Under the pieces are notes generated by a model, which saw only the letters and a program-made list of their open reading frames with translations, was not told the DNA's origin and ran no database searches. Positions 26,260 to 38,493 of a DNA stretch of 64,000 nucleotides are shown piece by piece. Origin of the DNA: Podarcis liolepis (lineage: Eukaryota); the NCBI GenBank assembly GCA_965112155.1, contig OZ218107.1. The stretch is one strand, 5' to 3'. Position numbers and translations under genes: made by a program. Positions within the stretch are counted from its first letter, which is position 1, and every line of letters starts with the position of its first letter.

Positions 26260-27361
26260 CTCACACGACACTATCAAAGCTATAGTTACGTAAATCCAAC
26301 TAACAGTAACACCCACAACGTAACTGGCTGTGTTTAACTATATGACTTCTTTATACATCGTATAAACATACCTCTCTTCACATTATCAAATTAAGTACAG
26401 TCATACCTCAGGTTGAACGCGCTTCGGGTTGAGCGCGTTCGAGTTGCGCTCCGTGGCAACCTGGAAGTAACGGAGTGCATTACTTCTGGGTTTCGCCGCT
26501 TGCGCATGCGCAGCCACTCAAAATGATGTCACGCACATGCGCAGAAGCAGTGAAAAGCGACACGCGCGTGCGCAGACGTGCCATCACTAGTTACGTTTGC
26601 TTCTAGATGCGAACGGGGCTCCGGAACGGATCCTGTTCGTATCTAGAGGTACCACTGTAGAAGCAATTAAAGACCAACATTTTGAACAGGAAATACAAAT
26701 AGATCAGTTCTTATATACGCAATGTCCAAACAGAAACTTTTTCGTGTTCCACGTATGTCTTTACAAATATAAGTGTCAGACGCAACAACTTTAAGAAGCA
26801 GCATTTGCAGAAAATGAAATTTTTTCTTTGTAATGTTCCACATATGCCTTTGCAAAGTATAGTTGTTGTATGCAGTTGCTGTATGCAGGTATCAGATGAA
26901 AGATACAAAAGAGCTTAACATATCAGAGACATGGAACACGTGACACAAAATCTGAGTATGCACGGCTGACAAAGCCCAGCAGGGTAAAAGAAGGTAATAT
27001 TCCAGGAATCCTTGCCTTAAGTTCTTTCGTCTGATACCTGCATACAGCAACTGCATACAACAACTATACTTTGCAAAGGCATATGTGGAACATTACAAAG
27101 AAAAAGTTCATTTTCTGCAAGTACAGCTTCTTAAAGTTGTCACGTCTGACACTTGTATTCGTAACGACATACGTGGAACACGAAAAAGCTTCTATTTGGA
27201 CATTACGTGTATAAGAACTGATCTATTTGTATTTCCTGTTCAAAATGTTGGTCTTTAATTGCTTGTACTTAATTTGATAATGTGGAAAGAGGTATGTTTA
27301 TATAATGTATAAAGAATTCATATAGTTAAACATAGCCAGTTATGTTGTGGGTGATATTGTC
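26260..27361. mobile_element. Fold-back insertion with ~340-bp inverted arms and a 13-bp flanking direct repeat (possibly Penelope-like)
   Basis: Arms 26303-26903 (interrupted by a MITE) and 27023-27360, 119-bp spacer; ACTGTCTCAGGAA at 26247-26259 and 27362-27374. The inverted repeat is certain; the family is inferred. Confidence 0.75.
26398..26657. mobile_element. Tigger-like MITE inserted in the left arm of the fold-back element
   Basis: TA|CAGTCATACCTC...GAGGTACCACTG|TA; the right arm shows the empty single-TA site. Confidence 0.9.
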
Positions 27362-28499
27362 ACTGTCTCAGGAAGACAGAGACAGCCTTTGGAGGTGGAC
27401 CAGGAGGAAAATATTCAGGCACAGCCCTCTCTATCTCGTGCTTAAGGCAGCCCCCTCATTTTGTTAGCTGGTAGGGCTGGCTCTGCAACACTCCATTAAT
27501 AATAATAATAATAAATGTAGAGGGATTTGTTGATTTTGTAATGGGCAACAATCACCTCTGTCCACAGGCTGGAATGAATTCCAAGAGATATAAATACTAC
27601 CCTGTCTCACACAGGGTTTCCCAATTGGATAAATGGGACTTTAGCATGAGTGTCCACTTGTCAGGGCTTTAGTTTTGCTTTAAATGTAGCTGTTGTTTTC
27701 CATAAATCAAAGGTATTAAGAAAGATACTTTTCTGGGCAAAATATTTTTGTTAGGAAAGTGCACTGGAAGAATTTGTAATGAGATTGTCAGACAAAATGT
27801 TGCTTGGAAAAGTTTCCTTGCCCTCTTTCCCTCCTCCTCACCTCCAAAAAAAGGCCTCATTTCTGTTTCCTATCCGAGTAGTTGTCAATTACATACTGCA
27901 GTGTTTCCCAACCTTTTTTGGGCAAAGGCACACTTGTTTCATGAAAAAAATCTCGAGGCACACCACCATGCCAGATGGGGAAAGGTCACTTTTTACTTAT
28001 GTAAAAAAAATAAAAAAAAATAGTAACAGCATAGAAGGTAATGGTAGATGACTGTTAGGGTCTCCCCCCAAATGCAGAATTCTATTAATATCTTCCTTAG
28101 CGAGCCGCGTTAACCCCTGTAATGCTTTCTATAGAGTAAGCATAGGGGACACTGGGGGATGTGGAACCAAGGGGGCAGTGGGCCAAAAGAGTTCGGGATC
28201 TACTGCTTTAAACAGAAATAAGAGCCAGTGGGTTCTTCCTTTTTTAAAGTATCGTTTCAGCGGGGACAGCAGTCCGGATTTCCAAAAAGCGGCGCTTTTT
28301 TGCGTCTGAGCAAAGAAGAGAGAGAGGGGAAAAAAGAGAGAGAGATTGATTTGTGGCTGCGCAAAGGGGGGAGGAGCCCAGGAGTAAAAGTAGGAAGGAC
28401 GAAGGGAGGGGAAAGGAAAGTTAATAGAAGGAAAGGCGGGTGGGAGAGAAAGAGAAAGAAAGAGGGAAGGAAGGGGGGAAGAGAAGTGGAAAGGAGGGA

Positions 28500-29505
28500 G
28501 ACCGAGGCGGGGGAGAAGCGTCTGGAGAGTTGCTCCGAAGTTTGGGGGGCCGCGGGGGTGGGCGCGCGTCCCAGGAGGCGGAGGCCAGCCCGGGCTGGGA
28601 GCCGCGCCGCGGCCCGGGGGCGGTAGGCGGACCGCGGCTCCTAGGATGTGGAAAGGGGACGGCGGCGCAGGGGGAGGAGACCTGCATGGCTAGGGCAGCG
28701 CGCAGGGGGAGGGGAGCGGGCCGGAGGCGGGCGAGGGGGGCCGCGATCCCGCGCGCCGCGAACATGGCCTCCTTCCCCGCGGGCCCTGCCGAGCCCCCCG
28801 GCCGGGGAGGGCGGCGCGCCCCCGCCGCCGGAGGAGAGCAGAGGCAGGAGGAGGAGGAGGACGAAGGCGCTGCCGAGGAGGCGCGCCAACTTCTGCCAAC
28901 TTCGGCGCCCGCCCCGTCGCCGCAGGCTCCTCCCGGCCGAGAGCCAGAGGACGGCGGCGGAGCAGGAGGAGGAGGATCGGGTTTGGCGACGGCTGCTGCG
29001 TCCTCTCCAAGCGCGGGGCTGGCCTCCGCTGCGCCCGATCCTCCGCGCTCGCCGCGCTTCTCGGCGGAGCAGGTCTCGTGCGTGTGCGAGGCGCTGCTGC
29101 AGGCGGGCGACCCCGGCCGGCTGGGCCGCTTCCTGGGCTCGCTGCCGCCCGACGCCGAGGCGCCGTGCCTGGAGGCGCAGGCGGGCGAGAGCCTGGCCAA
29201 GGTGCGCGCGCTGCTGGCCTTCCAGCGCGGCGACTTCGCCGAGCTCTACCGCCTGGTGCAGAGCCGGCGATGGGATGTGGGAGGGAGCTCGCTCGCCGCC
29301 CCGCGTGTGCCTATGTGGGGCACGTTACAGCCCCGTGACGTCAGCGCCACGCAGGCAGCCAGTCAGGCAGACGGCGAGAGCCACGTGCTGGGCGGCCTCT
29401 CCTCGCCGCCGCCGCCCCACCTCTCGCCGCCCGACTCGCCCGCCTCCCTCCCACGGCACACCAGGCAACGTCTCGCGGCACACTAGTGTGCCGCGGAACA
29501 CCGGT
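28500..29505. promoter_or_regulatory. CpG island carried inside the hAT element
   Basis: About 1 kb of very GC- and CpG-rich sequence in an otherwise CpG-depleted region; GC-box-like motifs upstream of the ATG. Confidence 0.8.
28764..29486 (+). pseudogene. SIX5: Truncated SIX5 copy: 168 SIX5-like codons fused in frame to 72 non-SIX5 codons (240 aa ORF), no homeodomain
   Basis: ATG in strong context (aacATGG). EEEE..EEARQLL, RFSAEQVSCVCEALLQAGDPGRLGRFLGSLPP and RALLAFQRGDFAELYRLVQSR match the recalled SIX5 N-terminus and SIX domain. Similarity stops at ~29267; TAG at 29484-29486. Confidence 0.88.
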
Positions 29506-30337
29506 TGGGAAACACTGACATACTGGAAGAAGATTGCCATTCACCATTCCACCCAGCCCTAGCCTGGGTGGAATACCCTAGCCTGGGGCTGAATAGCTGA
29601 GGTTGACTAAATTGCTTCTTGTGGCTTTCTGACTTTAAGCAAATGCCCCTACACAGCTCCACTTCAACATACATATTCAATAGCTTCCGAGAAGAAGGAA
29701 TTGTGAAACTTTGGTGAGATGGGCATTCATTCTTGATGAACATATAAAAGTGAGCCAAAGCTGAACACCTTCCACATCCTCTAGTACTACCCTGTGAAAT
29801 ATGCTGGTTTTTAATTTTTGGAGAACTGTTTTAAGCAGCATGTTTTGTATTTTTTGAAAATATATATGATCCCACCCTCCAGAAAATGTTTAGTTTCAGC
29901 TTTTGGAAGCTCAACAGATAGGTCATTAAATAGCAACTTGCTTTTCACCATTCACTGTGATCATTTTAGGACTATCTCCAACCAACATATGCTTGTCTAT
30001 TATCAAGGTGCAACAGTGTAAAAGAAGACCCTTTGTCTTATCAGTGAGGAAATGGTGTTGCTTTAGAAACCACACTTGAAATTAAATGGCGCAACATGTA
30101 AATATGAAACCTTTATAATAAAATGATACAGACGACATAGAAGTATATAAAAAATAGTTAGCAGGATTAATAATTCACTAACTATTGCATGGTATAAGTC
30201 GCTAACTAATGTGCGTTGCCTGCCATTTAATAGTGGATATATCTGAAGAAATATGGAAATTGGAATAGTTTAATAACTTTCTATATGAAAGATGATGAGA
30301 CTGCCTAAATGATTAAAAGGGAGATATGTTATAATGA

Positions 30338-36966: not shown

Positions 36967-38493
36967 TCATACTGTAGTAACTGATAAAAAAGCATTGTGT
37001 ACTTTTGTGTCGTCCGGAGATTTAGCACCATGTGTCATAAGTTCCTGGATAGTCATCCAGTTGTCCAAGATCTTCTTGTTCCTCTTTTTCATCATCTTTT
37101 TGTGACTGAGTTCAATGATGTTAATTTCCTTTTTGCCCTCACTGCTGCTTTGAGGGCTCTCTTTAAGACACTCTAGTCTGCTACGCATCATGTATTCCCG
37201 CCGCCGCCTCTGCTCCTTGGCTCGCACCAGGTGCTGCTTCCGTTCCTCTTTGCTCCAGTAACGACCCATCTTCATTTCGCTCATTGTATCATCATCCGTC
37301 GTCATCCCGCTGCGCTCCTCTTTAATCTTTAAGGCACGTTCCTTCAGGATTCTGTCTCTTACAGGTCTTTTGGTGATATACCTCGTCCCGTCGCTCCTTA
37401 TTTTCACTTTCCACTCCATCTTGGGCTCCGTACACTTCTGCGAATCTTTGCACATGTTCACTAGGCTGAGCTGGCTCTGGGCGTATTCCACAGCAGATTT
37501 CTGTTGTATCAGCTGCATATAGCTTTGATAATGCTTAGCGTGTGCAGGGATATTCCCATACCTGTATGAGGAGCCATGATATGGGGACAAATAAGGAATC
37601 TGCTCAGGGCTCTGCCTTTCTTGCTCTGTCGATTTGCTACTTTCTGAAACCGTTTCCTTCTCCTCGACAGAACTGTTTTGTTCAGCAGCTTTGGTTTTGT
37701 TTGGCGTTGTCTCCCTGCCACTCTGCCTCGAAGACAACTGGTTAGCCACAATGGTACTCCTGAGGTTTTTCCTATTGGTGATGCTAATCATCCGCTGGAG
37801 AGAACTGTCAGGGGATCGCTCCACGTTCAACGGAGTGCTTCTGCAGCTCTCTGCTGTGTTGTAAGCGCTGGAACTGTCTTTGTCCGATTTCTCTGGGTGC
37901 TCGATGATGTCGTCCAGTTTCCCCCCTGGAAGGTCTATACTGGTGTTATAATTCCTGAACGTACCACCCTGCAGTGCCCAAATGTCTCCGTACTGGTCTT
38001 TCACTTTTTGAAGCCGGTGAGCCTGCATGATGCTCTGACACTCGAGCTCAATGTTCCTCAGTTCCTCATTGAGCAGCTGCAGCTCATGCTCCACCCCGTC
38101 CTTTTTCCTTCGGTTGCACTCTATGGTACTGCTTGAGTAATACAAGTCATACTCGCCGTGCTTTCGGATCTTACACTTGAGTTCCAGCAGCTGGCGAAAC
38201 CTTTCGCAGTCCTCCTCCTGGTCACCAACAAAATCAGACTCAATGTATTCCCCAGACACTACGCTCTTGTTGCACTGGAGCTCGAGGCTTCCCAGAGTGT
38301 CCGGGCTCTGCCTCGGTTCCTGCTGGGTCTCTGGGGTCGGCTTCTTCTGCTCTTCTGGTGCATTTTCTTGCTCTGAGCTCTCGTCGTTGCGCTGGCTTTC
38401 GTCGGTGGGGCCCACTCCACTGTCTTTCTCGTTGTTGTTAGATGATGAGGTAGCAGTATCTGTTGTGCCGTCTTCCTCTTCGTGCTTTTTGGG
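36967..38493 (-). CDS. PDZRN4: PDZRN4 (LNX4) terminal coding exon, 508 aa + stop
   Basis: Acceptor tttatAG|CCC at 38494-38495 (minus) and TGA at 36967-36969; 1527 nt in frame. Motifs [56 protein letters not shown]; the C-terminus [10 protein letters not shown] matches PDZRN4 rather than PDZRN3 (recalled). Confidence 0.96.

Follow-up and report, generated by a model that had tools for sequence, protein, structure and literature searches.

Origin and nature of the chimeric SIX5 open reading frame

The window analysed here is a 64,000-nt stretch of Podarcis liolepis DNA (contig OZ218107.1) containing an open reading frame (ORF) in which the start of the homeobox gene SIX5 is fused to transposon-derived sequence. 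The first-pass annotation had suggested that such a product, lacking a homeodomain, might act as a decoy if expressed. Is this ORF a new regulatory gene, or is it something that a mobile element happens to carry? Our analysis indicates that the ORF is most likely passive cargo, residing in one copy of a multicopy hAT Pack-TIR whose middle portion was taken from SIX5.

Translation of nucleotides 28764–29486 yielded a 240-aa frame free of internal stops, as had been proposed. Its ATG, with A at −3 and G at +4, has the strong context ascribed to it and is the SIX5 parent's own start codon. The window copy also contains an in-frame ATG at 28686, created by a private CpG change (ACG to ATG), from which a 266-aa frame is open; the 240-aa frame stands, but it is not the full extent of the open sequence. 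The ORF features are as follows.

28764–29486 (+), 240-codon chimeric ORF: SIX5 residues 1–168 plus 72 right-arm codons
28686–28688 (+), private upstream ATG of the 266-aa frame, a CpG transition
29058–29267 (+), partial SIX domain, residues 99–168, with four predicted helices and Ala147Val at 29203

ORF residues 1–168 correspond to SIX5, with 94% identity to the Podarcis muralis protein in an alignment, and the closest proteins in a protein search were SIX5 from Podarcis and Zootoca. A profile search matched positions 1–70 of the 113 positions of Pfam SIX1_SD, and no homeodomain was detected in the ORF by Pfam search. Both the Pfam results and the alignments thus agree with the chimera first described. 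The ORF covers 18% of the SIX5 coding sequence, and it lacks the complete SIX domain and homeodomain of a functional SIX-family gene. Residues 169–240 are 72 codons from the right arm of the element. The junction between the two parts, previously placed near 29267, lies within 29265–29268 at a 4-nt microhomology (CGGC), and the TAG stop codon (29484–29486) is inside a subterminal palindrome (29477–29492), also as reported. No poly(A) hexamer was found between the stop codon and the element end, which counts against the decoy proposal. The open tail itself is unremarkable: at its composition (73% GC) 72 stop-free codons are expected by chance with P = 0.40, and in the cargo-less carrier one other frame is wholly stop-free across this right arm.

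The ORF resides in a non-autonomous hAT-like element

The host element of the ORF is non-autonomous and 1,619 bp long (27899–29517), and belongs to the 5′-junction class that we call A. It is bounded by 15-bp perfect terminal inverted repeats (TIRs; 100% complementary, two matches versus 0.17 expected) and by identical 8-bp target site duplications (TSDs) of the nnnTAnnn type.

27891–27898 (no strand), left TSD ACATACTG, identical to the 8-mer at 29518–29525
27899–29517 (+), whole Pack-hAT element, 1,619 bp, defined by TIRs, TSD and alignments
27899–27913 (+), left 15-bp TIR, perfect inverted repeat
27899–28045 (+), left arm, carrier nt 1–146, 99% match
28045–29268 (+), captured SIX5 segment (CpG island, upstream region and 5′ coding sequence), 97% match
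29265–29517 (+), right arm, carrier nt 584–836, with the CGGC microhomology (29265–29268) and the stop-bearing palindrome (29477–29492)
29503–29517 (−), right 15-bp TIR, perfect inverted repeat
29518–29525 (no strand), right TSD ACATACTG, identical to the left 8-mer

A cargo-less carrier of about 836 bp was identified, 19 of the 20 fetched examples being complete (828–858 bp), and the carrier-type junction has 580 matches in the genome. The SIX5 block stands in place of carrier nt 147–583, giving the order carrier 1–146, SIX5, carrier 584–836, i.e. host DNA between both arms of a TIR element. We examined 59 loci in which both element ends are present; a TSD with no more than one mismatch was seen at 54, and the central TA was present in all 54. 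An Rfam search of six loci gave no matches. The carrier exhibits a transition from CpG-poor to CpG-rich sequence resembling a promoter edge (L061 nt 147–790). It could thus be a pack element in its own right, with a captured middle (nt 147–583, with a CpG-rich right half). A number of carrier junctions are found as inverted pairs separated by 106 bp or with a 288-bp spacing.

We also searched for an autonomous partner. None of the transposase loci checked within 1.5 kb (30 of 62 with PF05699 and 17 of 17 with PF14291) shares the element ends, and the hAT label therefore rests on the ends and the TSD. The long frames recovered in these searches resemble what we take to be domesticated ZBED-type genes. 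An 8-bp nnnTAnnn TSD combined with TIRs of 5–27 bp defines Buster-family hAT elements in the sections of PMC3517528 consulted, and the lizard element has both. Buster MITEs described there, such as Mar, likewise have this TSD, short TIRs and no coding capacity; compared with that work, the lizard element is placed in Buster by its target site only, no related transposase having been found.

Elsewhere in the window, an inverted repeat with about 200 bp per arm lies upstream of the element (26850–27260). The final coding exon of PDZRN4 is at 36967–38028 (−) and has 99% identity to its Zootoca counterpart; PDZRN4 is the nearest identified gene to the ORF, approximately 7.5 kb away.

The cargo was taken from a single-copy SIX5 locus

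The cargo source (G000:C7:86,961,182-86,962,409) is part of an intact, single-copy SIX5 locus on contig C7. Window positions 28045–29268 match this locus at 97% as one contiguous genomic block of 1.23 kb, consisting of about 720 bp upstream of the SIX5 ATG and 505 bp of coding sequence. The parental copy is thus identifiable and is unlinked to the element, as is the case for a Pack-TIR; no carrier matches were found in the 36 kb fetched around parental SIX5. The parent segment has a CpG observed/expected ratio of 0.96, and residues 99–168 are identical across three aligned lacertid SIX5 proteins.

A SIX1/SIX2-like first exon (L032, G000:C7:86,944,289-86,944,786, minus strand) is located about 6.4 kb downstream of SIX5, with an intact SIX domain that extends into the start of the homeodomain. 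This exon may be a retained paralogue from a cluster of the SIX1–SIX4 type. Five further SIX-like matches were found on C1 and C3.

A truncated gene might also be produced by retrocopying, by segmental duplication or by an assembly error, but nothing other than the truncation speaks for any of these. The block reaches about 720 bp beyond the ATG on the upstream side and has no poly(A) tail; it is TIR-bounded, and its copies are dispersed with a different TSD at each site. Sequence words of the element were also present in six runs (kind unlabelled, none on record as RNA) of more than 1,300 million letters under four organism labels. We consider this group of explanations virtually excluded, as it is refuted by the TSDs and the dispersed copies.

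SIX5-bearing copies probably descend from one capture

The genome contains at least 51 SIX5-bearing copies. An exact 3′ junction is common to 38 of these (0 in the control), and the 13 that lack it, 11 in one subfamily plus two single copies, lost it through later rearrangement. Several pack copies each have a distinct TSD, as expected of a multicopy Pack-TIR. The ATG is missing from five of the 38 junction copies, and the 33 copies having both the start ATG and the 3′ junction were used as the comparison set.

Three 5′-junction classes were distinguished among the 33 copies: A (10 copies), B (6) and C (17). Classes B and C contain more carrier and less SIX5 than class A, and deletion from A alone would therefore not produce them. 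All three retain at least approximately 236 bp upstream of the ATG. The candidate microhomologies at the 5′ junctions are 1, 4 and 2 nt for A, B and C, respectively. All 33 copies share the same differences from the SIX5 parent, which points to a single capture. Classes B and C might then have formed when a pack copy and a cargo-less carrier underwent another template switch; alternatively, they could represent different deletions of a lost longer progenitor. No progenitor with more SIX5 upstream DNA was present among the copies compared; a dedicated search, crowded by an unrelated repeat, scored 40 of 5,552 candidates.

A tree of 32 copies and the parent, from which copy L038 was left out, was star-like, with none of 30 inner branches well supported, and the branch of the window copy (0.0074) was the shortest among the copies, a point against the passive-cargo reading. 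Mean divergence of the copies from their own consensus was 1.6%, and 0.6% outside CpG transitions. P. muralis also has a copy, a gene model that is the sole database homologue; it has no start codon and its tail is frame-shifted, which argues against a decoy. In one copy (L015) the SIX5 upstream part is interrupted by 151 bp of A-rich sequence (element nt 534–685) whose flank is duplicated, like a retro-insertion. In two others (L007 and L016) the left and right target sites do not match, possibly as a result of recombination between copies.

The element family captured host DNA serially

Derived copies hold additional host DNA from four other loci. The edge of a C1 CpG island (G000:C1:134,762,780-134,764,118) contributed 1.4 kb to 11 copies (L076–L081 and L117–L121). 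In this 11-copy subfamily the second cargo is followed by a repeated SIX5 stretch, and five of the 11 copies also contain a SINE-like piece. The C1 cargo is 5% diverged from its source compared to 1.8% for the SIX5 cargo, despite having been captured later. A 0.72-kb segment from C7 at 8.05 Mb (G000:C7:8,047,077-8,047,799) is present in two copies and a 1.09-kb segment from C14 (C14:1,881,137-1,882,228) in one; the loci with these two cargoes are L039, L037 and L047. Lastly, C6 supplied part of a 306-bp insert in a single copy, L038. The source of this insert (L141, G000:C6:50,740,756-50,740,938), from which 102 bp of the insert is absent, adjoins a short exon whose translation, in our judgement, resembles the N-terminus of a KLF1/2/4/17 factor.

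The five sources contain 3.9–10.5 CpG per 100 nt versus a background median of 1.2 in a convenience sample of 132 bins, five of which reach 3.9. As SIX5 was our starting point, four of the sources constitute independent observations. Serial capture by one family has a parallel in Pack-MULEs, in which a single element can carry cargo from several loci.

Copies accumulate mutations without sparing the protein

Among the 33 copies, 13 frames are fully intact, six have an in-frame 96-bp deletion in the tail, and 14 are broken, five by a shift or cut in the tail and nine within the SIX5 part. The ratio dN/dS was estimated with mutation classes fixed, after one slippage site and all substitutions located 4 nt or less from an indel had been removed; the values are pooled over copies, such that constraint on one copy could be hidden in them. 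For the 33 copies dN/dS was 1.06 (0.85–1.31) over the whole ORF, 1.06 in the SIX5 part and 1.12 (0.75–1.69) in the SIX-domain part. It was also close to 1 in the 13 intact copies (1.09, 0.77–1.56), and their SIX-domain part gave 1.89 (0.89–4.04). The coding frame yielded 1.04, and the non-coding frames were no different in kind (1.04 and 0.92). With dN/dS at about 1, purifying selection on the coding sequence was not detected in this set. A residue that is invariant in 39 SIX5 relatives is altered in 14 of the 33 copies, and the window copy itself has Ala147Val at a position occupied by Ala in all 40 other rows of the alignment.

Two results lean against the neutral reading. Nonsense substitutions numbered 2 versus 7.0 expected (P = 0.029; one-sided, uncorrected and one of many tests), and 17 of 35 distinct indels were in frame (P = 0.044 versus one third). 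When triplet-repeat slips were omitted, the in-frame fraction was 8 of 26 (P = 0.68).

CpG transitions made up 234 of 357 substitutions. The C-to-T rate was 3.65% per site at CpG and 0.45% outside CpG, an eight-fold excess. Such hypermutation is the usual mark of germline methylation, and we take the copies to have been methylated in the germline. In the GC-rich part of the window copy, seven of nine private substitutions are CpG transitions.

These data bear directly on the decoy proposal. The sister copies show neutral decay with disabling mutations, which the first-pass annotation had itself named as evidence against a functional protein, and the five further copies without an ATG add to this. 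As the copies mutate without sparing the protein, we favor passive cargo over a new gene. The persistence of the ORF in the window copy is probably explained by the youth of the family and its GC-richness.

The predicted product retains part of the EYA-binding domain

AlphaFold2 modeling of the 240-aa product predicted four confident helices (residues 101–167; pLDDT 72–94), with the rest disordered, the tail having a pLDDT of about 50 and the whole a mean of 63. As SIX5 relatives formed the basis of the model, it does not imply stability of the fragment. Its best structural match was SIX1 in the SIX1–EYA2 structure 4EGC (2.0 Å over 70 columns, E = 0.006).

The product is predicted to contain SIX helices 1–4 and lacks helices 5 and 6. 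In the portions of PMC7063838 consulted, EYA binding by SIX1 is lost with the helix 1 change V17E and weakened by R110W in helix 6. Because helices 1–4 are predicted and helix 1 holds the EYA-critical V17 position, it is not structurally absurd that one or a few intact copies might be translated into a DNA-binding-deficient SIX5 fragment that binds EYA via helix 1 and acts as a decoy. The 13 intact frames and the nonsense deficit would fit with this possibility, but the missing helices, the disordered tail, the Ala147Val change in the window copy and a dN/dS that is not below 1 even in intact copies make it very improbable.

RNA reads over the SIX5 block are sparse

Two bulk RNA-seq runs (about 12% read), one single-cell run (about 6%) and one contig set guessed to be RNA were searched; the individual or species may differ from that of the window. 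Depth was high over the element arms, because hundreds of related elements map there, and below 10 over the SIX5 block. Reads over the block came from both strands upstream and were mostly in the sense-RNA orientation over the coding part. No transcription start site was called at the SIX5 block in the four runs, and the flanks of the window element had zero depth in all four. In the two bulk runs, private alleles of the window copy at 28683, 28687, 28787 and 29030 were absent from all covering reads. At site 29246, where pack copies and the parent differ, the pack allele was present in two of six reads (X23) and in three of three (X24). The pack letter may reflect RNA made at trace levels by some copies, although carried-over DNA, read-through or an allele of the parent would give the same result. 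A contig of set X1 spans the class A junction, but as X1 is only guessed to be RNA it was not counted as expression.

Could the family instead act at the DNA or RNA level, with the ORF being incidental? The captured CpG island might function as a promoter or enhancer at scattered sites, or read-through RNA, sense or antisense, might modulate the parental SIX5 promoter. The both-strand reads over the upstream part, some with the pack allele, and the retention of upstream sequence in all three junction classes are consistent with this idea, and PMC8277862 considers effects of this type for both Pack-TIRs and Pack-MULEs. Set against it are the CpG hypermutation, the low depth without a start site and the fact that 1 nt in 60 has already decayed. 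We regard such a role as unlikely, and passive cargo remains our preferred reading.

DISCUSSION

The following series of events would account for our results. During replication or the repair of a break, a single template switch at microhomologies may have brought SIX5 sequence into the carrier. A Buster-type transposase acting in trans could then have moved the copies in a short burst, and further CpG-rich DNA would have been captured by the same route. The copies were presumably then methylated in the germline and left to neutral decay. The ORF would be a by-product of these events, as the gene's own start codon was captured and the frame runs on into GC-rich transposon DNA.

The lizard element belongs to the multicopy Pack-TIRs, with more copies and captures than the cases described in the consulted sections of PMC8277862. 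In that survey (Tan et al. 2021), four multicopy cases are reported among 370 Pack-TIRs in 100 genomes, those described having 3 to 5 copies, and the median cargo of the survey is 224 bp; the lizard family has at least 51 copies, a coding-bearing cargo of 1.23 kb and inserts from four more loci. Distinct TSDs, an unlinked source, short microhomologies and GC-rich cargo are common to the lizard element and the multicopy animal Pack-TIRs described there. Pack-hAT-N8_XT of Xenopus tropicalis is likewise a non-autonomous hAT with host 5′ sequence inside, in that case from the CAPSL 5′ UTR (PMC8277862). Ssk-FB4 of Drosophila melanogaster resembles the lizard element in being a transposon-borne gene copy with upstream sequence that was amplified by transposition, but nearly the entire gene is present in it, and peptides as well as selection have been documented, in contrast to the 18% of the SIX5 coding sequence evolving neutrally here (PMC8277862). 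Rice Pack-MULEs also hold gene fragments between TIRs and have GC-rich cargo, according to the parts consulted of Zhao et al. 2018 (PMC5861414). The main text of PMC8277862 contains none of the words lizard, anole and SIX5, and literature searches at the title and abstract level revealed no report of a Pack-hAT that carries SIX5 or comes from a lizard.

The family may be viewed as a vertebrate counterpart of Pack-MULEs that takes up CpG-rich regulatory DNA from active genes, one capture after another, and scatters it. One might further speculate that at least one of the 13 intact copies escapes methylation and yields a helix-1 fragment or an RNA that tunes SIX5/EYA in wall lizards; we rate this functional part a long shot. 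If true, a developmental pathway would have gained a very young regulator made by a transposon, the functional decoy; our evidence argues against this. The copies also have a practical consequence for annotation, as they yield SIX5-like gene models and can be expected to confound read mapping at the SIX5 promoter.

Protein function of the ORF is not supported by our evidence, and the main interest of the locus likely lies in the element family. Capture of host DNA by TIR transposons is still debated, and multicopy animal cases are rare in the sections of PMC8277862 consulted. Since a single genome contains the empty carrier, five sources, nested captures and junctions of several classes, both the capture mechanism and the CpG bias are directly testable in this family.
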